A DNA stretch of 64,000 nt from Raillietiella orientalis (taxonomy: Eukaryota). The DNA lies in assembly GCA_036172245.1 (NCBI GenBank), contig JAYWIR010000026.1, forward strand, positions 992,001 through 1,056,000. The letters run 5' to 3'. Below the pieces are notes generated by a model that was not told the DNA's origin, made no database searches, and saw only the letters and a program-made list of their open reading frames with translations. Both the position numbers and the translations under genes were made by a program. Positions 1 through 34,692 of the stretch are shown piece after piece (positions within the stretch are counted from its first letter, which is position 1; every line of letters starts with the position of its first letter).

Positions 1-141
1 CACATACCAGTAGATTCTCATTACTATGATAGGCAGTATTCAGCACAACAGACTGAATGGGGTTCAAGTACTTGCAGCCACGAAACAACAATTGTCCAAG
101 CTAACTAGATGATAATAAATGCAAGTTGAATGCATACTCAC

Positions 142-1735
142 ATCATCCAACTGATCAATTGCAATTCTTTTCTGATTATGTAATGGGGAAGTAGTTGTAG
201 CAGGAATGAAAATTTCCTCATAATTTGCTTCATTGGTGCATTTGTAATCAGAAGGCAATGACATTTTGCAGCCAGAAATATAAGCTGTGACATCAATAAA
301 AAACATGGATTAATTCACCAATCATTCACCTGCTGTATTTTTAGTTTCTTGGGAAGAATCAAATACAAAAGGATAATTTACTTGTGATGAAGAACTGTGG
401 AAAAGTGGTTGTGATGAGGAACCATGGAAAAGTGGTCGCACTGAAGCAGCTAACAGTGCATTTTCTCTACAAAAAGCACTGCATACACTAAGTGCAAATA
501 CACCTTACCTTTCTTTCTGAAGCTCCTGCCAGGTTTCATTATCTTTTCCGCTGGACTTGTTCATGAATTTTTTTTCTTCTTTACGAATCATTTTTCTCAA
601 CTGCTTTTCCTGTTCTGACTCTACTAATACCATTCCTTGACAAACTGGCTGCTTGAAACGTTCCTCTTTCCTGTATGTGGAATAAATACTCGAATCTGCT
701 TTACGATTACCACATCTATTTGAGCTTCCATGACAGAGTTCTAGACGATGTGCAAGGATCTGACTAATTAAATCTAGTTGATTAAAACCTAACAGTTCAC
801 AAAGCTTTCACAAGAGATAAATCAACTCTCAAGGTTTACAACACACCTCATTTTCTAATTCCAAATTGCTTTTAGAAGTCATTAATAAGGTTATCACTGA
901 AGCAGCCATTTCAGAGACTGTGACATTAACATCAGGGCACAACTTCTCTTTTAACCACTGCAAATCAAACTTGACTCTGTTTGCTGCTATTTGAGGTGGC
1001 TTAGTAGAAGCTTTCACAACAGACATAAAACTTTCTCTTGTCAACAGGCTATCTAGAGGTTCGTTGAAGCTAAGTTTGAAGAGTTTATCTACTTCAAGAT
1101 CTTTCAGTGGATCCGAACATGAGAATCTGATGTTAGTTCCGAATGCTTTTGTCAACAGTTTCCATGCATCTGAGGTGTCATTAGTGAAGATCAATTCCTG
1201 ATGAAAATTTTGCAACAATGCCTTAACAATCTGAAATACTTCTAGTGACATAATTAAAACAAGGTAAAACAAACTTTAGAGGCATCGTCAAATAAACGCC
1301 TATCAATAATTCCAAATAAATTACGCAGCTTAATGAAATCTTGGGTGTCAAGAGAATCTTTATTCAACAAGATGTTGAATAAATAGCATATTACATCTTG
1401 AATAATTTCAATTTTTTCTTCTGCACACATCGTACTGCGTATAATTTTAATCAAATTTGCCAGTTCTTTTTGCAAATTTTCATCCGGGGACTTCACTAAC
1501 GTTTGCAACTTATTCCAAGTAATGTGAACATTCCTAATAATAGAATCAACAAATCAATAAGCCTGCAGGTTAATATTGAAGGAGTCCGAAACCTTTTATG
1601 CCTTTCAAACTGTTCTATGTACTTCTCATTTAGATTGAAAGATTCACATGTTGTCTCTGCAGTACTTAGAGATGTATGTGCAATAAATGCTCCTGATAAT
1701 CGTGGAACATCCAATTGATTGATAAAATTTTCCAT
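142..1735 (-). CDS. ASCC3: ASCC3-like Ski2-family helicase, N-terminal six exons (1735-1593, 1533-1275, 1230-847, 804-509, 466-330, 284-142); gene continues past the left edge
   Basis: Spliced translation gives DVPRLSGAF..ITWNKL..LELENE|LCELLGFNQLDLISQIL..VESEQEKQLRKMIRKEEKK..RENALLAA..YPFVFDSSQETKNTAAYISGCKMSLP..YEEIFIP..IAIDQLDD, matching in order the ASCC3 N-terminus as I recall it (PRLTGA..LQDELFELLG..QSEQEKQLMK..YPHVYDS..AFIAGAKMILP..YEEVRIP). Five GT-AG introns (59, 44, 42, 42, 45 nt) all keep frame; GTGAGT donor at 141. The helicase core is outside the window. Confidence 0.88.
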
Positions 1736-3094
1736 TTAAATATGCTATTGCTTAAATATACTGGTAAAAATACGATTGCAACATTCATAGGTTCAACTCA
1801 CAAGCTTCGCATTTATGAAAAGAGCACGGAATGTATAGAGCCGTACGCTTCAAGTTTTCCTCTTTCAGACTATTTTGAACTGTCTTTTAACAAGTGTTAC
1901 CAAGTTCATGACAAAACAACCAACCAACCATTATAAAATCATAAAATTATTTTATGATTTCCCAATATATATTATCAAATCATCATGAAAAACAACGCTC
2001 AATTTAATAATTGGAAAATATAAGCATATAAATATTAAGTAATAAGTTAACAAACGGGCAGAGCAAAGAATACATTCACATCGGAACATATTATCAAGCA
2101 CTATATGTTCCTTATCGGCAAAACATTAATTCGTAACGTTTGAAGGTTTTCAAATTTTTTCTAATATTACTCCTAATTTTTTTGATTTTCTTTTATGATT
2201 CCTTCTTTTCCTCAGATAAATAGCATCCCGGAAAAAAACGATCAACTAATAAGTAAAAGCTTTAATTTGTTGCTTATTCAAAATAACCTAAAATGTTCCA
2301 GTGTGAGCTAATGAATTCGTCAGCCACCTTTTGGTCTAAAACAACTTCACATTCTGTTTAGTTCTGTTGGGCATGACTGTATTGCATGTAATTCAAATTT
2401 GCATGCAGACGTAACATGTATAAAAACTTTCGAATCTTTTGCAAAAGGGTTGCATAACCAGTTCAGAAAAATGTTGCAGAAGTTCTTGGGATACATTGTT
2501 TTAGATCTTTGAAGAGATGCAATTACCCTCACATTTCAACTTACATGAATCCGTCTAAGGAATCATTTGTAGACAACTTTTTACTCTTCCATATCTGAAA
2601 TAAGGTAATGAGCAACGAAAGAAAATATATCACCAAAAGTTATTGTTACTAATAAACGAAAGACAATCTTACGATATTCATTTTAAATTCCATGCGACCT
2701 GGTCAGAAAAGAAATGAAGAAATATACAATTCCAATGAATTGGATCAAATGGAAGATAATCGCAGGATCTTTGTTATGAGAAAGCAAAATCAGAAATTTC
2801 GATGAAATAACAGCAGAAACTACTAAAAAGACACAGGACATTCCAATGAACTGGAAGAATTAGTTAAAGACATCGATTTAAGCTGCACTTTTCTTTTACG
2901 GTCACAAGTTACAAACACGTTGCCCAAAAGACATTTACAGTAAATCATAAGAGATAAAAATCTTAATTTTAATCGGATCCTTTCTCAAAATAAAAGAAAC
3001 TAAAGCTTGTTCCTGTTTTGGACTAATTTGAAATGCATATTGAAAATGTCAAACGTGTCAACTTCAAGTTTCCTACAAGTCTACTCAAGTCCCC

Positions 3095-3508
3095 ATTACA
3101 AAGTGTCGTATGACATGCGCTTGTTATAAGAGGGGATCACGTTTTGCCCTCTACCACCGAGTGCCAGTGTGGAGGAAGTGGAGGTACCCTTCTGAGCAAG
3201 CGGACAGCGAGGCAGCGGAGTGGAAACGTGACAGCAGCAGTTGTCTGCCGATACGGAGATGATAGCATCAGCGTCAGCAACAACCTCTCCAGGCAGCCTA
3301 GGCGGAAGAGACGGCATCGTTCTCAAGGACGTCGTAAGCAGCGGTAACAGTTTTTCACCCGCTCACGCAGAGTCCTTTCTTTACAAGAAATAAAGGAAGA
3401 TGAGAGCGCAGTTCCCGAAACAGAATCAAGAAAGGGTGCGGGGTAGGGGGGAAGCGGTTCTTCGGGAGGATCCACCGACACGCAGGAGCAGATGCAGCAA
3501 CCGCCTAG
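3095..3508 (+). pseudogene. Possible degenerate ORF1-like remnant at the array edge
   Basis: GC-rich, Cys/Gly-rich start followed by basic and acidic low-complexity peptide with in-frame stops; no diagnostic motif. Confidence 0.25.
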
Positions 3509-5635: not shown

Positions 5636-5713
5636 GAGACGAACGTGAATTCGATTCGCTCCGTTTAGCCGCTGTTTGGTTGTGCTTGTGCGTACCACTG
5701 CCTAGTCCTGAGG

Positions 5714-6850
5714 ATGAGCAGTGTACAAGGCAACGTGGAAGTCGTCGAGCCATTGGCTCAGAAACTTCATGCAGCTGGCACGATGTCGGCAACTTCTGCG
5801 AGCCGAGCGCCACCGGCCAGGAGCTTCGCGGACGTGGCTGCATCTGCAGCCGTACAAGGGCGCCTCCCGGACCAGGCGGAGTTGCAGGCGTATGTAGCCC
5901 AGGGCTACAATCCTGCACTACGCTATAATGTAAGTGGGGTAGGATTAGCTGGGGAGGAGTTCGCGGACGAACTTTTCCGTGTGGGAGTGAGAGAGGAGGA
6001 CCTGTTAGCCCTCATGCCAGTTCCTGCATTGGGCCATGTGAAGGTCCGCTGTAAGCAGGCTGCCCTTGTGCAGCGGCTCCTCCGCACTCCCCTGTCCATC
6101 CTCGGGAAAAAAGTTTTTTCCACCGCGATGGACGAATCTTTTGTCGTTGTTCTTTCGGACGTCGAACCCGAGATCAACGACAGAAATCTGATTGACGCGT
6201 TGGCGAAATTCGCCACGGTTCTCGCGATGTGGAGGAAGGGAAGTACTTATAAGAAGTTTTCTTCCCTCCACACAGGATTTGCTGCGGTCAGGATAACCGC
6301 AACTAATCGCCGCACGCTGCCAGCAACGCTGCAGGTCAACGACACGGTCGTTCACCTGTGGTTCGTAGGCAAAGATCGCGCGTGCGAGCAATGTGGCAAG
6401 GAAGGGCATCGGAGGAAAGAATGCCCTTCCCGGAAGTGCCGCTATTTCAAGGAGTCCGTGCACGAAATCAGGAAGTGCCCGGACATTAAGAAAAAAAAGG
6501 AAGCTGCTAGACTCCGGAGCGTTAAAGAGTGCGCAGAGGAGAAAATAGCCTCTAAAAAGAAAGGCGCCTCGCGAAATCCCGCAAAAAAACAGAGCGGCAT
6601 CGTGGTCTCCCAGTCGGTTTCCTCTGCGTCAAACCCCCGAAAGGGCAATCACGCTGCAGGGAAGCTAATTAAGAAAGGGCGCGGGGGCTCCGCGCCAGCC
6701 GACACTGCTCCCGCTGCCCAAAGCGTAAATTCCGCTGTGGGAATGGGGTCAGGAAAGGCCGATCAACTGATCCAAAGCGTGAAAGTGGGTCAAGGGGTTC
6801 GCGATAACCTGCATCCACTATTCCGTTTTGCATTGCGGTGGCCTCAATGA
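5714..6850 (+). CDS. ORF1 (gag-like nucleic-acid-binding protein) of copy B, frameshifted at the C-terminus
   Basis: CX2CX4HX4C knuckle plus a degenerate second knuckle and a basic tail; homologous to 19037-20980. Confidence 0.8.
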   Translation: MSSVQGNVEVVEPLAQKLHAAGTMSATSASRAPPARSFADVAASAAVQGRLPDQAELQAYVAQGYNPALRYNVSGVGLAGEEFADELFRVGVREEDLLALMPVPALGHVKVRCKQAALVQRLLRTPLSILGKKVFSTAMDESFVVVLSDVEPEINDRNLIDALAKFATVLAMWRKGSTYKKFSSLHTGFAAVRITATNRRTLPATLQVNDTVVHLWFVGKDRACEQCGKEGHRRKECPSRKCRYFKESVHEIRKCPDIKKKKEAARLRSVKECAEEKIASKKKGASRNPAKKQSGIVVSQSVSSASNPRKGNHAAGKLIKKGRGGSAPADTAPAAQSVNSAVGMGSGKADQLIQSVKVGQGVRDNLHPLFRFALRWPQ

Positions 6851-7099
6851 CCGTTTCTCCGAAAAAGGCTGGATGCCTAGCGGCAAAAGCCGCGAAAAGC
6901 GGCGGCGCGTTGCTCGAAGACACCCCGCACCCGGAAGCATCCTCCCCAACGCGGCATTTTTCCCCAAGTCCCACGAGGGGTGGAGTAAATTTATTTTTCA
7001 AAAATTTTTCTATAAAAACATTCACACTACAATCTCATCCATACCATTAGCACTTTTTTTTACCACTATGAAGTCCTTGGGTTCTCACAAGTTCTGCAC

Positions 7100-9031
7100 T
7101 CATGGTGGGTTTCCTGCTGTTTGGTCCCGGGAGTCGTCTTCTATCCTCTTCAGGATGAATCGGTACGTCCAGGCTTGGATTTTCCCACAGTTTCTAATGC
7201 CGATTTCCCTCTTCAGGAGCCCTTGTAGGGTCTCCATCGGTGGTGCGGCTCTTCTGGCTTTCCTCATTTTCCACCACCGCACAAGTATGGCGGTGATGAA
7301 GAGGGCGATGGTCGTCCTCACCATGGGATTGTAACAGGGAACATTACCATCCCCTTGAAACATCCCGGCGAGGATCTCGTGGTCGATGGAGTCAAAAGCC
7401 TTCTCCATGTCAGTGAACAAAAGCACCAGGTTCTCGCCGACGTATCCACTGAGTCCAACAGTGGCCTGGGCACACTTGACATTCTCCGACATGTGTCGTC
7501 CTGGGACTGCACATGTCTGGACCGGAGAGATCAGCCTCGACATGACCTTGCCTAAGCGGTTGGACCAGATCTTCGCCAACCACTTGGCATCGGAGCTTAG
7601 GATCGAGATTGGCCTCCATTGGGCGATCTGGGTAGAGTCGCCTCCTTTCGGCAGCAATCTCATCCGACTCTCGTAGAAGGACTAAGGTAGTCTGCCTTCT
7701 TCCTGGATGCAGAGGGTCAACTGGTGGAACAAGCGCAGGTAGGCGTGCAGGTACCGCTGATAGTGCGTGATGGGTACACTGTCAGGGCCCGCTGCCACGT
7801 CCTTGCGAAGTTGCCCAAACGCAGTCTTCAACTCTTCTTCGGAGAACTCCTCCTCCAGTCTGTTCCGCTCAAGGTCGTCGGTCCTCTTCTCGAGATAGCT
7901 CAAGAAGGCCTGTTGACTAGAGCGACACAGATGTTGTCGCCTGAAGTGTTTCATGTGATGCCTGTGAAAGGCATCCACGATGTCCTCAGACGACTGTCGC
8001 TTTTGGCCGTCGTACTGGATGCAGAAGATATCTGTTGCCAGATTTCTCTTCTCTAGCACGCCGACTTCCCCTTTTATGTTATTGAGGACGTACCGACTCT
8101 CGTACTGATCGAAGTACTTTGAGAGGGAGCGATCTTGGATGTTCAGCTCCCGGTACGCCTCTTGCCTCAAGCGCCTATCCCCGAACTGCATGTTCGCAAA
8201 CAGGTGTATCCTGTGTTTCAGGCTGTCCCAGTCGGCGACTCTTCGGATTGTTGTTGCCCTCAGAATCGCCTCCAGGACAGCCTGATGTCCAGGATGTGTC
8301 TCGAACCAGTCGGGCATGCTGATGAGCGCCGCCCTGGTGCCTTGCCTCCGCCGAGGATTCTCCGTTCTTAGGGAAAACCGCACCAGGGGGTGATCGGACA
8401 CCGTAGTCATAGTGTCGCGAAACCCCTGGATGCGGTTCCCAAGTTCGGTGCTGTGCAGGACGTGATCGATTGGCTTGTGGCTTGCTGTTCGCCAGACCAG
8501 TCCGAACTCCTCGGATAGCCGTCGATACGCCGTCCTTCCTCTGGCGTCTTCCGAATGAATGATCTCATCCAAAATGTTGAGATCGCCAGCAACAATCACG
8601 ACGTCCTTGGGGGCGACCTTTTGCCGGAGTGTTGCATGCAGCGCCTCCGCACAACGATGTTTTAGCCTGTGCGGCCCGTACACGTTCACCAGGATAAGGT
8701 GAACAGTTGCGGACCAGGCTAGTCGCACGCCGATGATTCGTCCGGGTTGTGGACAGAACACTTCCAGAATAGTGGGGGCTAAGTGGTTCTTTATTAGCAC
8801 CGCCACACCCTTCGTGTTCCGTTCTCCTTCGCTGACGAACATCTGCCCGTTGAATCGCCGTTCCATTCGCTGGCTGATCTCGAGACCCATCCTGTGGGTC
8901 TCCTGCAGGCACACGATGTCTTGTTGTGCGATGGTCCGCACAATCCTTCTTCTTTTTCCCTGGTCGACCACACCGTTTACGTTCCAGGAGGCGATGTTCA
9001 GCCTCCTGGCAGTCGATAGGGAAGAGGTCAT
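7100..9031 (-). pseudogene. ORF2 of copy X (APE + partial RT, internal stop at 7682, deleted)
   Basis: APE motifs, AAGPDS, WRPISILSSDAK, DMEKAFD; YADD region missing. Confidence 0.85.
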
Positions 9032-9632: not shown

Positions 9633-10916
9633 CTAAGGCTGTTCGGCCTCCTTGATGTTTCTCTCTCTCACGGGAGAGAGACCGCGAATCCTTCTGCAGT
9701 TTTCAAACTCCGGACAGCTCCATTTCGCATGTCCGTGTTTCTTGCAGAAGGAGCACACCTCCGGCTGCGGGCAGTTTCGAACTTGATATCCTACTTTGCC
9801 GCAGCGAAAGCGGCGGCAAGTTGGGCAAGCGCCGGCCCTGTGGCCGAAGTGCTTGCACCCGGTGCAGAATACCGGTTGTTGCCGGTAACGCACATTCACT
9901 CCCTGGGATTGTTCGTCAATAACGGCCAATCCAGGGATCACCGCTCCCTCCCTCAACTTCATCTTGGCGATCATGTCGCCAGAAAATTTGTTTCCAGAGA
10001 AGTTCTGGAAATCGAGGTCCAGAACTTCCCCAAACTGCTCCAAGTAATTCCACACCGCTAGTTGCGGTGTGAGGATGGAGATGCCGTTTAGAAAGACGGT
10101 TGTGTATGGCATCTCGCCAATACCACAAACCATCCGTCCTTGTATATTGATCCCCTTCTGGATCAATCGCTCTCTAATGTTTTCACAGTCTGTAAAGACT
10201 GTTAACCCGTTGTTCGATGGAATGATCGCCTGAATGCGATCAAAGTCTATGTCCGTCTTGTCGAGGGACAAATAGACCTCCCTGATTTTATTAAATTTTA
10301 TTAGCCCGGTCTTGAAGATAATGGGCTTCACGTTGGGGCCTATTTCGACTATTGGTCGGTCCACTTTTAGAACTTTTCCGCTAAGCGGCTTACCAAATTT
10401 CCTAGGTGGGTGGACACTCGCCTGTCCAGCCGCCACCGACGCATAAGAAAAGGGCTGCGACGCCGCAGCCGAACCAGATGGCGTCGCTCCCTGCACCGCG
10501 TGAACGCCCGCGGGTCCCGCCTGGGACGCCGCCGCCGCGGGCGCAAACCTCGACGTCACCGCCGCGGGCGGCACCCTCGGCATCGCCGCCGCAGGAGCGA
10601 CCTTCCCCGCCGCGAGCACGACCTCCGCCGTCGTCGCCGCGGGCACGACCCTTGGCATCGCCGCCGCCGGCGCAGCAAAGCCCGCCGCGGGCGCGATCCT
10701 CGGCATGCCTCTCGCAACCTCGCCGTTGCCGCACGTTACCTCCATGGCTTCCATGGGGGACGATGGCCTCACCACTCCTCCAACTCCAGATGCCTGCATC
10801 CTGGCAGCTGTTCCGGCTGCTCGGGACGACTGCAGGATTTCCACCGTGGAATTCTCGGCGCTGCTGCTGCTGATGATGATGGTCCCGGGTTGCACTCTTT
10901 CCACACTGGCGTTCAC
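9633..10916 (-). CDS. ORF1 of copy X (three CCHC knuckles, Ala/Pro repeats)
   Basis: CTGCKHFGHRAGAC, CGKVGYQVRNC, CSFCKKHGHAKWSC. Confidence 0.85.
   Translation of the reverse strand: MNASVERVQPGTIIISSSSAENSTVEILQSSRAAGTAARMQASGVGGVVRPSSPMEAMEVTCGNGEVARGMPRIAPAAGFAAPAAAMPRVVPAATTAEVVLAAGKVAPAAAMPRVPPAAVTSRFAPAAAASQAGPAGVHAVQGATPSGSAAASQPFSYASVAAGQASVHPPRKFGKPLSGKVLKVDRPIVEIGPNVKPIIFKTGLIKFNKIREVYLSLDKTDIDFDRIQAIIPSNNGLTVFTDCENIRERLIQKGINIQGRMVCGIGEMPYTTVFLNGISILTPQLAVWNYLEQFGEVLDLDFQNFSGNKFSGDMIAKMKLREGAVIPGLAVIDEQSQGVNVRYRQQPVFCTGCKHFGHRAGACPTCRRFRCGKVGYQVRNCPQPEVCSFCKKHGHAKWSCPEFENCRRIRGLSPVRERNIKEAEQP
10525..10715 (-). repeat. Degenerate GC-rich coding repeats in X ORF1 (MPRxxPAA units)
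   Basis: MPRIAPAA, MPRVVPAA, MPRVPPAA, SRFAPAAA. Confidence 0.6.
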
Positions 10917-13900
10917 TCAAACACTTGCCCTCTCAGGGCACTCAAAAATTGCCTTGGCAGTGGTTTTAAACACTGCCTTGGCGGGGTATTGGGTATAGTT
11001 TTAAACTAGCAATAATCACGCCTCCCTTTCGTTCAGCGGCGGCGATACCGCCCGTGCGCAAGGCTCTCGCGATCGCTAAAGGAGTTGCTTAAGCCTGCGT
11101 GGAGGCAGCACTTCAAGAGGCAGCCAAGGCAACGCCTCTTACATCCGTGGGAGCAGCGCCATCTCAGGATGGCAAAGATAACTGCGACGCGAAGGAAGAC
11201 GGCTGGATGCAGGCGAGAAAGATCATTCGAAAGAAACCATCAAGGTCTTCGCAGCTCTGTGTGAAGGTGAGTGGGCGAAAGAAACCCGCGAAACCTTCCC
11301 AGAAAAAGATTGCGATTCTTTCCTCCTGCGCAATCGTCCTCTCGCGGCTGGAGCGGGAAGCTGCTGCTGCGGCTAAGAGGACGAAAGTCCCAGGCGCAGT
11401 TGCAGAAAGCGCTAGGAAACAGGCAGCGAACGATCTCCCTAATTCCGGGAAACAGCAGCAGTGCCTGGCAAGCGCTCGACTGTCGGATTCCGATCCAGAG
11501 TCCGACAGAAAGAGCACACAGCGCGACAACCGCCCGAAACCGCGCAATCGCCTCCCGAAGATCCGCAAGCGCGTGGTTGCCGAGGAGAAACTGTTGTTGG
11601 AGAGCAAAGAGGAGGAAAAGGACCTCACCTCTGAGCTATCGGCAACAAGCAGTGCGGCTTCGAATGGAGATGTCCAGTCTCCGAGATCGACCGCTCTGTC
11701 TCGTGACGACTCGCCGGACAAGGCGAGAAATCTGTTCTCACCTTCCCAGCCTTAATGCAGGAAATCGTCTCTTTCCGTCGATACAGCGTAGCCTGTTGGA
11801 ACGTCAATGGGCTGCGCAGGGACGGAAAGAGGCGCGACGTGTCAGACACCCTGCGACATTTCGATTTGGCGATCCTTCAGGAGATGCATTACATCTCCGA
11901 TGAGGAGGTTGCCGAAATCGAACAGCGCGCGGGTGGCACCCTGTACTGGCGAGAAGGTTTTGCACAATCGTGCGGAGTCGGGTTTCTCGTTAATAGTAGG
12001 ATGGCGGGAGCAGTGCGCAGCGTTCGATTCGACAAGGAAGGCAGAAGAGGCCAACTTGTACTCAAGTGATCAGATTCAATCGACCTCGTCGTAACGAACG
12101 TCTACGCGCCGAGCGGCTTTCATCGGCGTGTCGAAAGAATCGAGTTCTTCGACGTGCTGAAGAGCCAATGGCTCAGAAACTCCGGAGCCAGAGTGGCGCA
12201 TCTCGTCGCAGGGAACTTCAACGTCCACCTGCTTTCCAACGAGACCCGATCCCTGGCGGAACGGTCGCGGGTGGAAGAAGCATGCGCGTTGGTGCACGCG
12301 TGTAACTTGGAAGCCGGCGAGCCTGGACTGGAAAGGAACGTGGATCACCTCTACCTCGATGAACACCTACTCTCGCGAGTGGGAAGGAGAGGCAGGGTGC
12401 CGTCCACGTTATCGGACCATGATAGGCTGGAGTTCGAGCTACTCCCGCCTGGCAAGGGACCTCCAAACAACGTTTAAATTATGCCGGCGGATTGGCTGAG
12501 TCACCCGGAAGCGGCGAAGCATCTTCGCCAGTTCCTTTGCGGCTCTGCCATCCGGGAACTCGCAGACTGGGACCATCTTAAAAGATCGGTTCGCGAGTTT
12601 TGCGACCGGTTCCCCCTGCAACTGCTACCACGCGGCTTCGGGGAAGGCGTGGCCAATAGCAGAGCATTTCTGCAGGCGTGCACCTTCTCGAGACGTGCGG
12701 AAGTCCGGCAACTCGCAGAGTACAAGGCGAGGGCCGAGCGCCAGGTCTGGCAGTCTGGAGCGGCTATTCTGCTCGACGACCAAGGCCGGGAATGCACGGC
12801 TCCTGCCGAAGTGCGGCGAGCACTAAAGCGTCACTTCTCCTCGCTCTACGCTAATTCCCCGACGGAAAGAGTCCTCTCCGAACTACTTTTGCCGCGGGCT
12901 GCACATGGCATCGGCGAGGAGGAACGCGATCGTCTCGACGAGCCCTTCACGTTGGAGGAAGTTTCTTCCGCCATCGCAGGACTCAAGAGACGGGAGACGC
13001 CAGGTGAGGACGGACTGCCCGCGGAGTTCTATCAGAGCTTCGCGGCGGAACTCGCCCCACTGGTTCCTAGAATCTCGACGCTGATGAGGGTGACGGGCGA
13101 TGTCCCTTCTTCCTTCCGCTCAGAAAGGGTGCGTCTCCTTCCGAAAGGAGGGGATCTGCGCCAACTCAACAAATGGCGTCCGATCACATTAGTGAATAAG
13201 GACGTCAAGTTGTTTTCGAAGCTGTGGGTCACGCGCTTAGGGAAAGTCGCGGAGTCCCTGGTAAGCCCGGAGCAGTCTTACGCTGTACCGGGTAGATCAA
13301 TGGATGCGAACCTTCTTTTCGCGCGCACCTGGTGGCAGCTCCAAGAGCGCGTTGCAGCGGATAGCCGAACAGCGGCAAGACCTTCTGCCGACTGCGTGCG
13401 CCAGTGCGAACGGACGGAAGAAAGGCCGGGAGCCTTGACACCAGCAGTAGATTTGCACAAAGCATTCGATTTTCACCCGGATTTCGCCGGGGCGTTTATT
13501 ATAAAACAAACATCTACAAAGACGTGCAGTGGCTGGACCATTGCTCCAGCCACGCACGAAGAAACACAGAGCCTGCCGGGTCACCGGTTTGCAGACCGGT
13601 ACGGTCCACCACGGCAGCAGGGGGAAGGGGGAAAAACAAAAAACAAAACAAAAAAGAAGAGAAAAGTTGGGAGGGTAAGGGAAGGGATCACAGTTGCTGG
13701 TGGGGCCGTTGCATCCTTTGCAGGATGCCGGCAAGCTCCTTCTGTATTTCTGAATCCAGGTGGGGCCATCGGGACGCCCTCCTCTGGAACTGGAAGGCTG
13801 GCTGGATGGCACCCTGGTCGCGTTGTCCTCTCTAGGCCTTGCCCCAAGCGGTGACGATCCCGCGTAGGCAGCACAAAGCTGCTAACGAGGCCGCTGGCCG

Positions 13901-18100: not shown

Positions 18101-18216
18101 CAACATTCTTGTTCAGTCGTCGGTTGGGAGTTTGGTTCCCAACTGGTTTATTTTGTATAATTGCTTTTTTTGGTTATGTTATATGGAATAAACGCCCCTG
18201 CGTGACCGGGTGTGAA
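15121..18216 (+). mobile_element. Copy M (lineage 1): lacks the 5' half, has an intact RT-to-3'-end half
   Basis: 902-codon open frame, pyrimidine-rich 3' UTR, AATAAA plus hairpin at 18187-18212. Confidence 0.92.
15155..17863 (+). CDS. ORF2 fragment: non-LTR reverse transcriptase + C-terminal CCHC, no endonuclease
   Basis: KAPGEDG, DLHKAFD, RQGDSLSPLLF, YADD, RYLG, CLRCGEIEFFPHLLLDC; longest open frame in the window. Confidence 0.93.
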   Translation: MHQLPRGFGEGVANSRDFLQARSFSRRVDVGRLSEYKAKAERQVWQSGETVLLDDQDRECSAPADVRRIVRRYYSSLYAEAPTERSLSRLLLPIDAPVVDEEKRARLDEPSTAEEISSAISGLKRRKAPGEDGLPAEFFQCFAAELIPLVLQLSSLMRDSGDVPALFRSAKVRLLPKGGDLRQLNNWRRITLVNSDVKLFSKLWVARMGRIAESLVSPQQTYAVPGRSMDANLLFIRTWLQLQHRLAVDRRAEATPSISHRRRRGTQRETPRALAAAVDLHKAFDCVNQKLLLELLERLGLPASLLAYLRSYWRHAITSIVFSGCRVYGVPVRRGIRQGDSLSPLLFSFYFELVLEAYRLTLANLPSSCPGMPAVAAYADDLLLLLPRATPATSLEDFFELIRRGAGVSVNRSKCMVVPVGATWEGQSDWIDLRIPTGRYLRYLGVPLGDFCISEAWSDCLRKAERALGPFSGGEFVLPERACIWNNFVASLLRPLFFFPPPQEVKVWAQRLLRKALWGAARSRVGLKDLMAPRQDAGLGILDLNSIELQVQFRMLRLCAKLWCTPWCLPARLILRRCTGSEGLLSLLPHFRHTRIGFGFPLRQLSSLLEAQSWISCRPMNINAWRQEFLSSWAASKGTRLEDLRRLRLLLSHQMDEVMQDKKLSDRLAATPLAAALPALRASNDGCLPAEWEFSCKIAGFSKLLGSWTTKELVQAVTPRNRAKGLLRWSEHLSVPPEVIVVPRVCLDSSVFPLKWKQDVLLFLHCALHCNRQRSIVSEGAALPNCLRCGEIEFFPHLLLDCGDLRELWRRLTSAIMSQRGTAIDVLRRFFSRNGLSVGAIVATMCCVRAIVKARYALELSAQRREAHLLAAQFMEKASSWSRLRDKVNEDITGIHRRFTHL

Positions 18217-19036
18217 ATCTCTTGCGCTTGTTCTGCAGAGATCACGTGGATCTCCTGCAGCAGCGCAAGGTCGTAGGACTCCAGAAAGGCGGCCATGTCT
18301 CGTCTCCTGCCGGCGTCTGTCATGCCGTTCACGTTCCAAACGGCGATGCGCAGACGACGGCGGGAGGAGATTCCCGGCATTACTGCTGGGAAGATTAAGG
18401 TGTGGGGGAGCCCTCGTCTTGCGAGGCAGGCGGGATGTCCATGGGGGTTTCGGCCTTCTCAGGCACCTGAGGCACCTGTTCGGCCTCCAACCCCTCCATC
18501 CCCTCCGTGTCCGCGCGTGGGAGTCTCTCGGGCGACGGGTCCAGAGAGTTTCCCACGCTCATGGCACCCTCGCTTGCGGAAGCCATCTCTTCCCCTTCGA
18601 CGGGGGAGACGAGCTTCCTTGGCTTTGTGGACTTACGTACAGCCTTCTTGCGCGGTGCCGTGGAAACGGAGGCTGCGCTTCCGGCCTCCACCACGGGGTC
18701 GGAAGTGGGGGACTCCTGAGGGAAGGCACGACGCCTTACGGCCTTCTTGGCAGCCTTGGAGGGTTCTGGCTGCAACGAGGCTGCCAGCTCCTCCGCGGCT
18801 CACGCAAAGGCTACGTCATAGATGGTGGTGTCGATGACGGACGCCGCCGCCGGCTCGCTCCGCTCGCTGTTGACAGAGTCAACAGAGGAATTGTCGTCGG
18901 TAGCGGCAAGTTCTTTTTCGCAGCGGTCGGGAATACACTCGACGACGACGCCCGCACGGACGTGTACTGTGTTGCTCCTCGAGCGTGATTCCTTTCCGTC
19001 TTTTTGTGTGTGGTGTGCCCGAGTGCGTCCACTGGG

Positions 19037-20980
19037 ATGTCCACGGAGACCCTGCAGCAAAAGATGGATGTGGAGGCTGCTACTGGCAGTGGAGACTCTA
19101 CTCCAGATGTCCGGTCCGCCTCTGATTCTTGTGTCTCGCCACCGGCGAGAAGATTCGCCGCCGTCGTCAAGGCGGTGGCAGCCAACGGAGCACCGCCCGA
19201 CGAAGCAGAGCTGCAGGCATATGCAGCCCATTGCTACAAGCCTGCGCTCTGCTATCCGGTGAGTGCTTCTATCTCCGAAAGGGTCGGAGAAAATTTGTGG
19301 GACGAGCTTTTGCGCGTCGGGGTCCGACAGGACGACCTCCTGGCCGTCATGCCGGTTAACGCGCTCGGACACTGGGAGGTGCACTGCAAAGAGGCATCCC
19401 TAGTCCAGCACCTTGTCCGCACCCCGCTAAACATGCGCGGGAAGGAGGTCGTCCCGTCGGCCATCGACCAGTCGTTCGTGGTCCGATTTACCGCCGTCCA
19501 GGTGGACACGCCCGATCGCGTGCTCGTCGCTGCACTTAGTGCATTCGCCACGGTGCACGCAATGTGGAGAGCAGAAAATCCGATCAAAAGGATTCCATCT
19601 CTACACAGCGGACTTGCCATGGCGCGTCTCACCATGGCGGATAGGAGGCAAATGCCTCCGCACTTGCAGGTGGGCGATGCGATCGTCCACCTTAAATTTG
19701 CCGGTCAGCGACCGGCTTGCGGCATTTGCGGTGCCGAGGGCCATCGTCCGTGGACGTGCCCTTCACGCAACTGCCGCTATTGTGAACAGCTCGGCCACTC
19801 CGTCAAAGAGTGCGCCGAGCTGAAGAGAAAGAGGCAGGCAAAAAGCCGCCAACAATCGACCCCGTCTGCGCCAAAAAGATCCCCCGTTGTGCCACTGGAG
19901 AAATCGGGCGCGAAGGGCGGGGCATCTTCGAGTGGAGGTCTCGCGAAAAAGGACGCGGTTGCTTCAGGGAAGCCACCATCCCAGACAACCGCGCAGACGG
20001 GAAAGACGCCACGTCGCCCTGGGGGCAAATCGCACCCTTCGAAGCAGCCTAAGAGTGCGGGCACGCACTCAATCAAGGCAGCTGAACCGTCCGCGTCCGC
20101 TCGCGCGTATAGCGGAGCACACGGGAAACCGTGCGCGGGTACCCCCGGAGCTGCCTCTAAACGGCAGTCTCCTCCTACGGCGGTGGAGATCACGTCTTCC
20201 ACGCCGAAGGCACGAGCAGCGAAGGCCGCAATACCACCTCGCGGGACGACGGCAATGACCGCCGTTTCGCCCGCATCGGCTAAGGAGCAGGTGCAGTGCG
20301 TAACGGGGACGGAGCCGTCTCCCGCCGCGAGCGCGAAACGTGAGCCGGCATCTCCGGCCAAACAATTGAGGGAGGCGTCGGCCTCCCAGGAGGGCGTCCC
20401 CTACGCGGGCTGGACTCGAGTCTCCAGGACGCCCACAAAGGGGAAGAATAAGGTTGACCCTTCAATATTCCCCATCCTTAAGGTGGGTGGGAGGCAAAAG
20501 AGAAGCACGATGAAGAAGGTGCGTACCCAGGTACGCACTACGGCTGCGTGCTCTGTCTCCGTCGCTTCGCGCGAGAGGGCAGCTGCGGAAGCCAAAGCTC
20601 CGGAAGCTGCGTTGGCGACTGCGACGACCCCCGCGCGGGCAGGGCAAGCCTCCACCTGCCGAAACAAAAAGAGACTGGCAAAACGCCAGTCTCGCGCCAG
20701 GCACTCGGACTCCGAGGTGGAGTCCGAGTGCAAACAAATGGAGCGCGCATCCCGGGGTAAGCCGGTAGCGCGCCGGGCTAAAGTGCGAAAGCACGAGCCT
20801 GTTGCCGGAGGCGGTTCCGGCTCCTGCACCGAGACCGAGGCGATGATCCTCGGCTCCCAGGACTCATCTGGGCGCGATGTGGCGGCGAACGGGAGCGATT
20901 CCGCTTCCCAATCCGCTCTCCTACCAGCTGACTTCTTGCCGGACGGGGCGAGGAGCACGCCGTCATGTCCGCAGCAGTGA
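19037..20980 (+). CDS. Intact ORF1 of family A
   Basis: MSTETLQQ start; CGICGAEGHRPWTC and CRYCEQLGHSVKEC knuckles; long basic Ala/Ser/Pro tail. Confidence 0.9.
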   Translation: MSTETLQQKMDVEAATGSGDSTPDVRSASDSCVSPPARRFAAVVKAVAANGAPPDEAELQAYAAHCYKPALCYPVSASISERVGENLWDELLRVGVRQDDLLAVMPVNALGHWEVHCKEASLVQHLVRTPLNMRGKEVVPSAIDQSFVVRFTAVQVDTPDRVLVAALSAFATVHAMWRAENPIKRIPSLHSGLAMARLTMADRRQMPPHLQVGDAIVHLKFAGQRPACGICGAEGHRPWTCPSRNCRYCEQLGHSVKECAELKRKRQAKSRQQSTPSAPKRSPVVPLEKSGAKGGASSSGGLAKKDAVASGKPPSQTTAQTGKTPRRPGGKSHPSKQPKSAGTHSIKAAEPSASARAYSGAHGKPCAGTPGAASKRQSPPTAVEITSSTPKARAAKAAIPPRGTTAMTAVSPASAKEQVQCVTGTEPSPAASAKREPASPAKQLREASASQEGVPYAGWTRVSRTPTKGKNKVDPSIFPILKVGGRQKRSTMKKVRTQVRTTAACSVSVASRERAAAEAKAPEAALATATTPARAGQASTCRNKKRLAKRQSRARHSDSEVESECKQMERASRGKPVARRAKVRKHEPVAGGGSGSCTETEAMILGSQDSSGRDVAANGSDSASQSALLPADFLPDGARSTPSCPQQ

Positions 20981-22037
20981 TGCGTGGACTCACGTCCGCT
21001 CGTCGCTTCAGCGTGACCTGTTGGAATGTCAACGGGCTACGTGATGCTGACAAAAGGCTGACGGTAGCCAACGCTTTGCGCGCGTTCGATCTGGTGCTGC
21101 TTCAGGAGATACATAGCATCTCCGTACGGCAGGCATCGGATCTGGAAGAGCGCGCGGGCGGGACGCTACTCTGGCGGCAAGGCTCCGCGCACACGTGCGG
21201 AGTCGCGTTTTTCGTCCGAGGCAGGGTGGCGGAGGCGGTGCGGAACGTTTGTTTCGACGAGGAAGGTCGTGTGGGCCAACTTGTCCTCAAGTGGTCCGAA
21301 TCGATCGACCTGGTCGTTACGAACATCTACGCGCCGAGGGGAGGCCGGCATTGCGCCCAGCGACTTGCATTCCTGGGTGGCCTGCGCAGCCGCTGGCTCG
21401 CTGACTCCGGCCCTAACGTGGTGCACCTCCTTGCAGGAGACTTCAACGTCCACCTGCTAACAGAGGAGAGATGCCGCTTGAGGGAGAAGCAACTGGTGAG
21501 CGAGGTATGCGCGTCCGTGTGCGTGCAAAACTTGCTTGCTGGTGAGTCCGGGATGGAGAGATCGCCGGACCATGCGTTCCTCGATGAACACCTGCTCTCA
21601 CGATTAGTTCGGAGAGGGCGTCTGCTGTCCGCGAATTCGGGTCATCCTAGACTGGAGTTCGAGCTCCTCCCGCCTGGCAAAGGGCCTCCGATGAATGTCT
21701 GGAGATTGCCCGACGACTGGCTTAGCAATTCGGAGGCGGCGGAGCATCTTCGCCAACACCTCCGGGGCTTCGCCATCGGTGAACTCGAGGACTGGGACGA
21801 TCTGAAAAGATCGGTCCGCGAGTTCTGCTGCTGGTTCCCCTTGCACCTGCTTCCCCGCGGGTTCGAGGAGGGTGTCGCGAACAGCAGATCGTATCTGCAG
21901 GCGCGTACCTTTTCACGATGCCCGGACGTCCGGCGTCTGGCGGAGTATAAGGCCAGGGCCGAGCGCCAGGTTTGGCAGTCTGGAGCGGCTTGTCTGCTCG
22001 ATGACGCTGGCCAGGAATGCTCGGCTGCAGCCGAAGT
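20980..22037 (+). CDS. ORF2 N-terminus of A1: APE endonuclease and linker (truncated)
   Basis: CWNVNG, LQEIH, CGVAF, NIYAP, AGDFN, PDH, SGH (SDH in A2/A3). Confidence 0.9.
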
Positions 22038-29831: not shown

Positions 29832-32800
29832 AGCTGAGCGGAGAGAAGCGGGAACATCTCCCGTCTCACGCATCAGCGAGGAAAGGCTTAGCACCAGGGG
29901 GACGAGCTCCTCCGCGAAGCACTGAAAGAACTCCGCGGGCAGAATATCCTCCCTAGGCGCCTTACGCCTCTTCAGGCCCGCCATGTTGAAAGATACTTTT
30001 TCCGCCGTGAAGGGCTAATCGAATCTGGCGCGTTCCTTCTCGTCGATAGCAGGGTTGCCCGTCGGAAGAAGCAGCTCGGAGAGACTGCGTTCCGTGGGCT
30101 CCTCCGCGTACAACGAGGAGTAGTAGTGCTTGACTACGCGGTGTACTTCGGCTGCAGCCGAGCATTCCTGGCCAGCGTAATCGAGCAGAGAAGCCGCTCC
30201 AGACTGCCAAACCTGGCGCTCGGCCCCTGGCCTTGTACTCCGCCAGACGCCAGACGTCCGGGCATCGATAGAAGGTACGCGCCTGCAGATAGGATCTGCT
30301 GTTCGCGACACCCTCCCCGAACCCGCGGGGAAGCAGGTGCAAGAAGAACCGGCAGCAGAACTCGCGGACCGATCTTTTCAGATCGTCCCAGTCCTCGAGT
30401 TCACGGATGGCGAAGCCCCGGAGGTGTTGGCGAAGATGCTCCGCCGCCTCCGAATTCCTAAGCCAGTCGGCCGGCAGCCTCCAGATTTCATTGGAGGCCC
30501 TTTGCCAGGCGGGAGAAGCTCGATCTCCAGTCTCGGATGATCCGAAATCGCGGACAGCAGGCGCCCTCTTCGACGAACTCCTGAGAGCAGGTGCTCATCG
30601 AGAAACGCATGGTCCGGCGATCTCTCCATCCCAGGCTCACCAGCAAGCAAGTTTTGCACGCGCACGGACGCGCATACCTTGCTCACCAGTTGCTTCTCCC
30701 TCAAGCGTCATCTCTCCTCTGTTAGAAGGTGGACGTTGAAGTCTCCGGCAAGGAGGTGCGCAACGTTAGGGCCGGAGTCAGCGAGCCAGCGGCTGCCCAG
30801 GCCACCCAGGATTGCAAGTCGCTGGGCGTAATGCCGGCCGCCGCTCAGCGCGTAGATGTTCGTAGCGACCAGGTCGATCGATTTGGACCACTTGAGGACA
30901 AGTTGGCCCACACGACCTTCCTCGTCGAAACAAACGTTCCGCACCGCCTCCGCCACCCTGCCTCGGACGAGGAACGCGACTCCGCACGTGTGCGCGGAGC
31001 CTTGCCGCCAGTGTAGCGTCCCGCCCGCGCGCTCTTCCAGATCCGATGCCTGCCGTACGGAGATGCTATGTATCTCCGGCAGCAGCACCAGATCGAACGC
31101 GCGCAAAGCGTTGGCTACCGTCCGCCTTTTGTCAGCATTACGTAGCCCGTTGACATTCCAAGAGGCCACGCTGACGCTACGAGCGGACGCGAGTCCACGC
31201 ATCACTGCTGCGGACATGACGGCGTGCTCCTCGCCCCGTCCGGCAAGAAGTCAGCTGGTAGGAGAGCGGATTGGGAAGCGGAATCGCTCCCGTTCGCCGC
31301 CACATCGCGCCCAGATGAGTCCTGGGAGCCGAGGATCATCGCCTCGGTCTCGGTGCAGGAGCCGGAACCGCCTCCGGCAACAGGCTCGTGCTTTCGCACT
31401 TTAGCCCGGCGCGCTACCGGCTTACCCCGGGATGCGCGCTCCATTTGTTTGCACTCGGACTCCACCTCGGAGTCCGAGTGCCTGGCGCGAGACTGGCGTT
31501 TTGCCAGTCTCTTTTTGTTTCGGCAGGTGGAGGCTTGCCCTGCCCGCGCGGGGGTCGTCGCAGTCGCCAACGCAGCTTCCGGAGCTTTGGCTTCCGCAGC
31601 CACCCTCTCGCGCGAAGCGACGGAGACAGAGCACGCCGCCGTAGTGCGTACCTGGGTACGCACCTTCTTCGGCGTGCTTCTCTTTTGCCTCCCACCCACC
31701 TTAAGGATGGGGAATATTGAAGGGTCAACCTTCTTCTTCCCCTTTGTGGGCGTCCTGGAGACGCGAGTCCAGCCCGCGTCGGGGACGCCCTCCTGGGAGG
31801 CCGACGCCTTCCTCAATTGTTTGGCCGGAGATGCCGGATCACGTTTCGCGCTCGAGGCGGGAGACGGCTCCATCCCCGTTACGCACTGCACCTGCTCCCC
31901 AGCCGATGCGGGCGAAACGGCGGTCCTTGCCGTCGTCCCGCGAGGTGGTATTGCGGCCTTCGCTGCTCGTGCCTCCGGCGTGGAAGACGTGATCTCAACC
32001 GCCGTAGGAGGAGACTGCCGTTCAGAGGCAGCTCCGAGGGTACCCGCGCACGGTTTGCCGCGTGCTCCGCTGGACGCGAGAGCGGACGCGGACCGTTCAG
32101 TAGCCTTGATTGAGTGCATACCCGCACTCTTAGGCTGCTTCGAAAGTGGCGATTTGCCCCCAGGGCGACGTGACATCTTTCCCGTCTGCGCGGTTGTCTG
32201 GGATGGTGGCTTTCCTGAAGCAACCGCGCCCTTTTTCGCGGGACCTCCACTCGAATATGCCTTGCCCTTCGCGCCCGATTTCTCCAGTGGCACAACGGGG
32301 GATCTTTTCTCGCAGACGGGGTCGATTGTTGGCGGCTTTTTGCCTGCCTCTTTCTCTTCAGCTCGGCGCACTCTTTGACGGAGTGGCCGAGCTGTTCACA
32401 ATAGCTGCAGTTGCGTGAAGGGCACGTCCACGGACGATGGCCCTCGGCACCGCAAATGCCGCAAGCCGGTCGCTGACCGGCAAATTTAAGGTGGACGATC
32501 GCATCGCCCACCTGCAAGTGCGGAGGCATTTGCCTCCTATCCGCCATGGTGAGACGCGCCATGGCAAGTCCGCTGTGTAGAGATGGAATCCTTTTGATCG
32601 GATTTTCTGCTCTCCACAGCGCGTGCACCGTGGCGAATGCACTAAGTGCAGCGACGAGCACGCGATCAGGCGTGTCCACCTGGACGGCGGTAAATCGGAC
32701 CACGAACGACTGGTCCATGGCCGACGGGACGACCTCCTTCCCGCGGATATTTAGCGGTGTTCAGAGAAGCCGCTGGACTAGGGATGCCTCTTTGCAGTGC

Positions 32801-33228
32801 ACCTCCCAGTGTCTGAGCGCGTTAACCGGCATGACGGCCAGCAGGTCGTCCTGTCGGACCCCGACGCGCAAAAGCTCATCCCAAAGGTTTTCTCCGACCC
32901 CTTCGGAGATTGCAACACTCTCCGGATAGCAGAGCGCAGGCTTGTAGCCATGGGCTGCATATGCCTGCAGCTTCGATTCTTCGGGCGGTGCTCCGTTGTG
33001 TGCCACCGCCTTGACGACGGCGGCGAAGCTTCTCGCCGGTGGCGAGACACAAGAATCAGAGGCGGGCCGGACATCTGGAGTAGAGTCTCCACTGCCAGTA
33101 GCAGCCTCCACATCCATCTATTACTGCAGGGGCTCCGTGGACATCCCAGTGGACGCACTCGGGCACACCACACACAAAATACGAAAAGGAATCACGCTCG
33201 AGGAGCAACACAGAACACGTCCGTGCGG
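29832..33228 (-). mobile_element. Copy A2 (lineage 1): 5' end through early RT, frameshifted; inverted near-duplicate of A1
   Basis: Long stretches read as the reverse complement of 18952-22037; 5' CCGCACGGACGTG at 33228-33216. Confidence 0.92.
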
Positions 33229-34692
33229 GTGTACTCGTGGAGCGGATTCCGGCCATCGACGAATGCGGCGCTAAAGAACTCGCTGCTGCCCCTGCTCAAC
33301 CCTTTGTTGACAAAGTCAACAAGGAAGTGAGCGAGGCGGCGGCGTCCGTCATCGAGCTCACGCTCGATGACGTCGCCTTCGAGCGCGCCGCGGAGGAACT
33401 GGCTGCCTCGTTGCAGCCAGCCGCCCCCAAGGCTTGCAAGAAGGCCGTCAGGAGTCCGGCTTCCCCTTAGGAGTCGGCCACTTCCGACCCCGAGGTGGAG
33501 GCCGGAAATACAGCATCCATCTTTTCGGCACCCCGCAAAAAGGCAGGACGAAAGTCCACAATGCCCCGGAAGATCGTCTCCCCCGACGAAGGGGAAGAGA
33601 TGGCTTCCGGCTGCGAGGGTGCGATGAGCGTGGAAAACTCCCGAGACCCGCCGCTCGAAAGAATCTCACGCTCCGGGACGGAGGAGATGGAGGGGGTGGA
33701 GGCCGAACAGGTGCCCCCGGTGCCTGAAGAGGCCTCCGTCCCCATGGACATCCCCAACACCTGCCCCGCGGCAGGTGGTGCAGCGCCACCTTCGCAGCAT
33801 TAAAGCCGGGAATCGCGTACCGTGGTCGTCTGCTTATCGCCTGCTGGAACGTCAACGGGCTAAGCAACGACGGCAAGAGGCGTGCCGCGGCCGCCACCCT
33901 AACCTCCTTCCACTTGGTGCTCCTGCAGGAGATCCACGTGATCTCCGCAGATCAAGCCCGGGAGATCGAACGGATCTCGGGTGGTCGGCTGCTGTGGCGC
34001 TGCGGTATCGCGAAATCAAGCGGTGTCGCCTTCCTGCTCCGGCCAGACATCGAGGCCGCAATCAAGGACGTACGGTTTGATGACGCCGGTCGCGGCGGTC
34101 AGCTGACTCTCAGCTGGTCCGACTCAATCGACCTGGTCGTCACCAAGTTGTACGCTCCTTGCGGTAAGGACGAGTTGAGGGCGAAGGCAAGAAGAGAATT
34201 CTACCTTGCCCTCGGACGCGATTGCCTGATCGAAGCAGGTGTTCGCAAAGCGCACCTAATCGCAGGTGACTTCAACCTGCGCCTGCTTTCAGCTGCGCTG
34301 GATACACTGAACGACCGCGTCAACGAGTTGTGCGCGCAAATGCACACGTGCAACTTGCTGGCCGGAGATACGGACATGGAACGGAGCATCGATCACGTGC
34401 ACCTTGACCAGCACCTATGCTCTCGCGTGGGCAGGCGCGGCAAGTTACCGTCCGAGCTGTCGGACCATGGCCGAATCGTGTTCGAAGTGCATCCGCGCGA
34501 CAAGGACCCCCCCTCGTCAACATGGCGTCTCTCAGGGGACCGGCTGAAGCTCCCGGACGCGGCGGAACATCTCCGCACGTTCATACGGAACTTCAGGATT
34601 CGGACGCTTCAGGACTGGGACCGCTTCAAGCGGTCGGTCCAGGAGTTTTGCGACCGGTTCCCTTTGCATCGCCTACCTGCGGGATTTGGGGT
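33229..34692 (+). mobile_element. Copy H (lineage 2): ORF1 tail + endonuclease, bounded by A2 and C2
   Basis: VLVERIP..AAEELAASLQ; WNVNG, LQEIH, GDFN, IDH, SDH; ends at RLPAGFG. Confidence 0.88.

Follow-up and report, generated by a model that had tools for sequence, protein, structure and literature searches.

The window, that is, the whole stretch of 64,000 nucleotides analysed here, is a GC-rich nest of about 23 L1-type LINE fragments (APE and RT) that lie on both strands, many of them interrupting each other. The fragments were mapped by tblastn with eight window-derived ORF1 and ORF2 proteins as queries, and the Pfam domains recognised in long open frames are Exo_endo_phos, RVT_1, zf-RVT and zf-CCHC. 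GC content is 35-42% in the first 4 kb and 54-65% after that, with about 60% for the window. Positions 1-3500 form an AT-rich left flank (35-42% GC), whose minus strand has exon-like open frames at 505-1735. For these frames, no Pfam match below E 0.029 was obtained and the look-alikes in a language-model atlas were sub-threshold only; the flank is probably unique host DNA that borders the LINE island. At the junctions inside the nest the other half of the interrupted element is often missing, which suggests that deletions have been common.

One of the nested families, termed family A, has exactly three copies in the window at 92-95% identity, as judged by blastn of the first copy (A1) against the window. 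The remaining matches are relatives at 80% identity or less. The first bases of the three copies are 18952 (+), 33228 (-) and 50380 (+), and their extent is as follows.

18952-22037, plus strand: A1, with 5' end, 5' UTR, intact ORF1 (18989-20980) and the APE part of ORF2 (blastn, Pfam, tblastn map).
29833-33228, minus strand: A2, from the 5' end to the early RT, with stop codons in ORF1; truncated at 29833.
50380-55000, plus strand: A3, with both ends present, an internal deletion corresponding to A1 20315-21488, and an ORF2 that stops near 54800.

All three copies are 5'-complete. The 3' parts are missing from A1 and A2, the homology of A1 to the other copies stopping at 22037 beside the 3' end of another LINE, and A3 alone keeps the 3' end (...GTCCCGGCGCATCCGGGTAATAA at 55000). 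Pfam recognised Exo_endo_phos in ORF2 of A1 (E 8.8e-12) and RVT_1 in ORF2 of A3 (E 3.9e-19), together with weak zf-CCHC matches in ORF1 of A2 and in an A-like ORF1 at 5669-6850, and zf-RVT in related ORF2s. In a PDB search with the RT of a related 15-kb element, which stood in for the A3 RT at 69% identity to it, human L1 ORF2p was closest (E 6.8e-36) and R2 followed at about 1e-13. The APE of A1 matched the L1 endonuclease (L1-EN) at E 6.8e-5, and the solved endonucleases of R1Bm and TRAS1 were absent from the 6 PDB matches at E<=0.01 for this query. The closeness of L1 ORF2p and the L1 endonuclease, with R2 far weaker, indicates that the elements belong to the L1 group. By its predicted proteins, family A is an L1-group non-LTR retrotransposon with a CCHC knuckle in ORF1 and APE and RT in ORF2. 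A protein search with the A3 RT returned a single relative, at 60% (P0002). In metagenome contigs, an exact 22-mer of the family A 5' UTR had no match and a profile of the A-type ORF1 gave 454 pattern matches, none of which was confirmed.

Family A and the element that it adjoins at its 5' end are arranged head to head: the C-terminus of the host ORF1 comes first, followed by an ORF2 APE running away from A. The junctions, the hosts and the empty counterparts of the target are listed below, with flanks and first element bases given on the element strand.

18938-18951, plus strand: 5' flank of A1, CTCGACGACGACGC, antisense of the S-V-V-V-E codons of host1 ORF1; joined to CCGCACGGACGTG, the element running from 18952.
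33242-33229, minus strand: 5' flank of A2, CTCCACGAGTACAC, antisense of the V-L-V-E codons of host2 ORF1; joined to CCGCACGGACGTG, the element running from 33228.
50366-50379, plus strand: 5' flank of A3, TTCGACGACAACGG; joined to TGCACTGACGTG, the element running from 50380.
18186-18951, minus strand: host1, C-terminal part of ORF1 and the first ~80 APE codons, head to head with A1.
33229-34690, plus strand: host2, C-terminus of ORF1, then APE to about residue 311, leading away from A2.
46121-50379, minus strand: host3, 3' portion, with ORF1 from the VVE codons on, ORF2 (APE, RT) and a 3' end at about 46121.
55001-56150, minus strand: host3, 5' portion, with the N-terminal domain of ORF1 including CCHC, an empty KRCSVV site (about 55087-55152) and the spacer to ...AVASVV.
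62787-62806, plus strand (the would-be element strand): empty target GCGTTCGACGACGACGCTGC in an uninterrupted host1-family ORF1.
40503-40522, plus strand: second empty homologous site, ATTCCACGACGACGCTGCAT, in another ORF1 copy.

All three junction strings given in the initial annotation of this DNA were found in the sequence exactly as written. Identity between the copies, measured in 100-nt windows, is 87-96% inside the element; upstream of the junction it is 61-76% between A1 and A2 and 46-57% between either of these and A3. This drop implies that the boundary of family A is sharp and that the three hosts belong to different families, as the annotation had claimed; blastn agrees, with 76-82% or less. 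Host1 is 93% identical to an uninterrupted copy at 62060-62776. Read from the A1 junction, the host1 protein is VVVECIPDRCEKEL..., and from the A2 junction the host2 protein is VLVERIPAIDEC...; the uninterrupted host1-family paralogue at 62060-62776 has ...AIIKECSVVVERVLHV..., and its DNA crosses the site as GCGTTCGACGACGACGC followed by TGCACTC, at the position taken up by family A in A1. The window therefore also contains targets that are uninterrupted and empty, the paralogues at 62.8 kb and 40.5 kb both reading through the site. The alignment to the 93%-identical 62.8-kb paralogue and the translations also bear out the annotated codon register, which is the same for A1 and A2, with ECS on one side of the junction and V(V/L)VE on the other.

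The flanks resemble each other far more than the hosts do. All three copies agree in 8 of the 14 flank columns, and the flanks of A1 and A3, otherwise unalignable, are identical at 11 of 14 positions. When triples of window positions were drawn at random, each position being allowed to slide by +-6 nt, none of 3000 reached 8 invariant columns (the largest value was 7). Words of at least 8 nt were shared by 106 of 20000 random pairs of 24-nt flanks, and the non-homologous flanks of A1 and A3 share such a word. Three insertions might nevertheless have fallen by chance in ORF1, near the GAC-rich codons of an almost all-LINE window. The composition of the window lends this some plausibility: it is GC-rich and rich in GAC and GTC, and an 11-mer from the target occurs 57 times with at most two mismatches, against 20.6 expected. 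The random triples speak against it, as do the orientation of family A relative to the word, identical in all three copies, the common register in two hosts and a 12-mer (below) that is shared uniquely with an empty site, and coincidence is extremely improbable as an explanation.

The three copies could also be descendants of a single event, if one ancient composite of host and A had been duplicated, its A parts later homogenised by gene conversion and its hosts left to diverge. Such a history finds some backing in the arrangement of A1 and A2 as a large inverted repeat, host1 and host2 lying on its outer sides, and in the proneness of repeat nests to conversion. It does not explain why A3 sits at a different position next to a host flank that cannot be aligned (46-57%), nor why the pairs of A copies are about equally distant (92-96%), A1 and A2 not being specially close, and the conversion tracts would need to end exactly at the first element base in every copy. 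A duplicated composite is thus very unlikely. The neighbourhoods around the three copies differ in the tblastn map, and these differences, together with the identity drop at the junctions, establish at the level of the sequence that the three A copies are independent.

The initial annotation had further proposed that a nucleotide sequence is recognised and not a position within ORF1. This proposal is favoured by a shared 12-mer, by an occupied and an empty site within host3 and by empty variant sites. The 12-mer, GCGTTCGACGAC, is found at the A3 flank and at the empty site of the host1 family, its only two occurrences in the 128 kb that both strands of the window make up. In host3, the core is gone from the element's own ECS-type site (TTGATGAC), which is empty, whereas family A occupies the downstream site, where the core is present. 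In four further copies of that downstream site TCGATGAC stands in place of TCGACGAC, and all four are empty. Counted over 16 ORF1 motif instances (14 found by protein pattern and 2 in element E1 by eye), family A occupies 3 of the 5 that have the core TC[GC]ACGA[CG] in antisense and 0 of the 11 that lack it, a post hoc count that is illustrative only, the motif having been derived from the occupied sites. The instances without core include the host3 ECS site, the four downstream copies, both copies of a further family (family B) and a diverged ACSVSVAS site of family A.

This last site is a counterpart of the target motif in family A's own ORF1 (AACSVSVASRER, at 20525-20590 and 31592-31657). 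Its antisense DNA (GCGAAGCGACGGAGACAGAGC) is without the core word, so that A is not expected to hit itself. Two A-like families are found at 5641-7300 and 43944-46118, both on the plus strand, with ORF1s that are 51% and 58% identical to that of A. The element at 43944-46118 is 5'-truncated. The other has its 5' end near 5641 (…AGACGAACGTG…), where it adjoins the sense strand of another element's APE, and its flank is without TCGACGAC-like sequence, so that the target preference looks specific to family A.

The core is found 25 times in the window, 3 occurrences carrying A and 22 being empty. No insertion is present at the exact 11-mer at 62791, whose sequence context is the same, or at a near-exact copy at 40507, and the A2 flank agrees with the 11-mer in just 8 of 11 positions; the 11-mer is thus neither necessary nor sufficient for insertion. 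The 9-mer GCGTTCGAC lies also in the KAFD codons of three RT genes, none of which has an A insertion there, and as a target on its own it is ruled out by these occurrences. With the core mostly empty, the site at 62791 empty, A2 matching at 8 of 11 positions and the KAFD 9-mers unused, either the recognised sequence is longer or more degenerate than the words that three sites allow one to define, or insertion is far from saturating.

The third copy offers a view of both sides of an insertion. In the tblastn map, the two halves of host3 flank A3 on the same strand. Beyond 55000, host3 reads KRCSVVIKRFPAVQQSNKVALVAADF*PSGKLMPEAHDPAVASVV on the minus strand, which is collinear, with no gap, with the paralogue's KECSVVVERV...SEPAAASVI. 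An ECS-type site of its own, empty, has thus been retained by host3, and A3 is inserted some 40 codons downstream, within ASVVE. The placement of A3 at this look-alike motif, already suggested in the annotation, holds on the collinearity of the far side and on a contig that joins the two host halves: one contig of the public run X1 joins 50369 to 55001, with ACGAC fitting both sides. It is a single contig with a depth of 2.1, and most of the 103 X1 contigs aligned to the window are only 85-95% alike, so that it represents another copy of the host family and not the pre-insertion allele. No 5'-junction information was contained in the 6 of 73 loose ends and the 8 of 110 contig pieces listed for X1, and run X2 yielded no contig that aligned to the window.

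The duplication that borders A3 can be read in two ways.

50373-50379 (ACAACGG) or 50370-50374 (ACGAC), plus strand: upstream copy of the A3 TSD.
55001-55007 (ACGACGG) or 55001-55005, plus strand: downstream copy of the A3 TSD.

The 7-bp TSD with one mismatch, proposed earlier, was recovered; it leaves no extra bases and lets all three 5' junctions fall at the core + 5 nt. The exact 5-bp TSD ACGAC is an equally valid parse that leaves five extra bases, AACGG, at the 5' junction, in which case the first element base is possibly 50375. The two parses shift the inferred nick by 3 nt. In either case the 3' junction of A3, the sole 3' junction seen for family A (n=1), is 5-7 bp from its 5' junction. 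A3 is a complete simple insertion. A different reading, in which the 3' end would be at 55113, the duplication GACGACA and the register that of A1 and A2, was ruled out by the X1 joint, the host3 collinearity and the 3' module at 55000. Template-switch chimeras and a twin-priming inversion were likewise rejected: the partners are head to head and of different families, and A3 has both host flanks.

Family A is probably a sequence-preferring L1-group LINE that integrates at a short nucleotide word, a reading drawn from three copies in one 64-kb nest. On the element strand the word would be approximately (C/T)TC(G/C)ACGA(C/G), followed by a few more bases; read in antisense, it would correspond to Val-Val-Glu codons in the C-terminal region of ORF1 in a second LINE clade of the same nest. 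With the word antisense to host codons, A would land head to head inside those LINEs. The A endonuclease is predicted to nick the host-sense strand inside ...GT^CGT(C/G)GA... or, under the other parse, at a distance of one GAC unit. Reverse transcription would be primed at the nick (TPRT) from an RNA ending ...GGGUAAUAA, and a cut of the second strand 5-7 bp away would give rise to the duplication. By analogy with Tx1- and R1-clade elements (PMC4640811, PMC1919474), the specificity may reside in the endonuclease, with read-through target sequence possibly helping. The operation of TPRT with duplications in this nest is supported by a 5'-truncated LINE (S22; 60048-61743, minus strand) whose insertion, co-oriented with the 62-kb element, interrupts the GDFNV codons of that element's APE. 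It has a clean 10-11 bp TSD, TTTCAACGTT, with flanks at about 61744-61760 and 60038-60047, and the interrupted element resumes at 60052 downwards.

Two other readings bear on the role given to the endonuclease. It could lack specificity altogether, A inserting anywhere and its 5' junction being fixed by ACG/GAC microhomology to the 5' terminus (…CGCACGGACGTG), often with target deletions. ACG/GAC words are indeed present both in the 5' end of the element and in the flanks, only 5' junctions are seen for A1 and A2, an end that the endonuclease does not set, and the frequent loss of the other half at nest junctions would fit with deletions. Matches of 2-3 nt are abundant, however (ACGAC alone occurs 134 times in the window), yet two hosts were hit in one codon register. 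Moreover, the 3' junction of A3 lies in the same word, 5-7 bp from the 5' junction, which places the first nick there. Microhomology accounts for A1 and A2 and not for A3, and is an unlikely explanation.

Alternatively, the targeting could be real and be set not by the endonuclease but by tethering to the host LINE, through protein or RNA, chromatin or read-through pairing, with the fine position being secondary. In its favour, the primer end shows no visible complementarity to the A tail (…GGGTAATAA), so that base pairing would be dispensable for priming, except if the downstream ACGAC of the source copy were included in read-through transcripts; for elements with a fixed target, read-through transcripts can indeed include target sequence, a general property described for R2 and its relatives (PMC4494074). 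No observation made here speaks for tethering itself, and the discrimination between TCGACGAC and TCGATGAC at one site fits a sequence-reading nuclease or base pairing and not tethering to chromatin. Tethering has a low probability, although sequence comparison alone does not tell it, or RNA pairing, apart from reading of the word by the nuclease.

Sequence-specific LINEs are natural models for programmable, RNA-templated DNA insertion, and they are relevant to the way in which a transposon reaches a 'safe' place to insert. Target-specific families are concentrated in early-branching clades and in the Tx1 and R1 clades (PMC4640811, PMC4494074). The target types listed in these sources are rDNA, snRNA and tRNA genes, microsatellites, telomeric repeats, DNA transposons and LTR elements (PMC4640811, PMC4494074). 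The Tx1 clade, described there as found in animals, includes elements that target the piggyBac-type Tx1D (Tx1), Mariner-N4_AMi (crocodilian Tx1-Mar) and LTR retrotransposons (Tx1-8_Crp, Tx1-4_AMi) (PMC4494074, PMC4640811). As far as these descriptions go, Tx1-clade elements are, like family A, APE-type L1-group non-LTR retrotransposons at a preferred sequence inside another mobile element. Unlike theirs, the target of family A is the antisense of the ORF1 coding sequence of other LINEs, and at least two look-alike positions are used. A 'Transposon TX1' cluster is among the look-alikes of the A3 RT in the language-model atlas (score 0.89), which is a lead only and not a phylogenetic placement. 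Taken together, the atlas look-alikes of the RT are indicative of eukaryotes, Bacillariophyta being the group most often represented. In the R1 clade (R1 in 28S rDNA, TRAS/SART in telomeric repeats, microsatellite families), too, an APE-type endonuclease reads a specific sequence, as is proposed for A, and its targets are described as multicopy and hence tolerant of insertion (PMC4640811, PMC1919474). The target of A is also multicopy, but it is another retrotransposon and not a multicopy gene or repeat of the host.

As to architecture, Zepp and ZeppL of green algae are L1-type LINEs described as forming GC-rich, nested, centromeric clusters, in a less GC-rich genome, through insertion into existing copies (PMC8226300, PMC3446292). 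The present window likewise holds a GC-rich nested cluster of L1-type LINEs in less GC-rich surroundings (about 60% against 35-42% in the left flank). By these accounts, Zepp inserts into copies of its own family and forms arrays of 5'-truncated 3' ends, whereas the copies of family A are 5'-complete in 3 of 3 cases and sit at a defined word within other families; insertion into same-family copies with mostly 5'-truncated 3' ends was not found for family A. By analogy, family A would function like the target-specific Tx1-type LINEs, in an architecture like that of Zepp nests. A word-match search of the open-access literature found no LINE described as targeting the ORF1 of another LINE. If the proposal is true, a coding word of competing LINE families would represent a new target type for sequence-specific APE-type LINEs. 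It would also offer a concrete mechanism for the origin of Zepp-type nested LINE islands, for which the descriptions cited above say only that the elements 'target existing copies'.

A further instance of nesting at a defined site was observed at 3' junctions. Two 3' ends of one family (copies 83-91% alike) lie on the minus strand at 13473 and about 57187, with flanks at 13410-13472 and 57125-57186; these copies are probably the 3' parts of host1-family (H1) elements. Both end directly before TCGAATG / TTGAACG, the antisense of the RT KAFD codons, in two different A-clade elements (11710-13470 and 56299-57185), and uninterrupted paralogues carry the KAFD site. The position of H1 at antisense KAFD is a second case of site-specific nesting, seen here at the 3' junctions. 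It is conceivable, though on balance doubtful, that the nest was built by reciprocal sequence-specific parasitism, the A-clade aiming at the antisense of H-clade ORF1 and the H1 family at the antisense KAFD codons of the A-clade RT. If this were true, each clade would be the landing pad of the other and the GC-rich LINE island, possibly of centromere type, would grow by itself.

The 3' ends of the nested elements have a feature in common. A terminal module, AATAAAyGyCCCGGC(4-6 nt)CCGGGT with a short A-rich tail, is present at all nine LINE 3' ends examined.

3' ends with the module: about 13473, 18213, 22040, 34697, 43940, 46121, 55000, 57187 and 60048.

The families that bear it are only 45-70% alike in RT. 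In the 8 stretches compared, 2 of which end short of the stem, the predicted 5-bp stem of the module is conserved, with G-U wobbles but compensatory changes in 0 of 5 pairs. The module is a conserved sequence module whose RNA structure is not proven; it may serve as a recognition element shared by the RTs, in which case cross-mobilisation would be possible.

Family B has two 5' ends in the window, at about 25034 (+) and about 40300 (-), both of which begin GGACGTGT(G/T)TTTCC. The motif GGACGTGT is common to the 5' ends of families B and A. The flanks of the two B copies differ, one being the antisense APE of another element and the other sense ORF1 after ...LQPEPSAAS, so that a common 5' flank is not a feature of every family in this nest. 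Tandem repeats were also observed in the N-terminal regions of LINE ORF1s: one at 10530-10701, with 27-nt and 75-nt units, belongs to a divergent minus-strand element, and a 42-nt unit is repeated in two H-clade copies, at 41527-41633 and 63792-63874.
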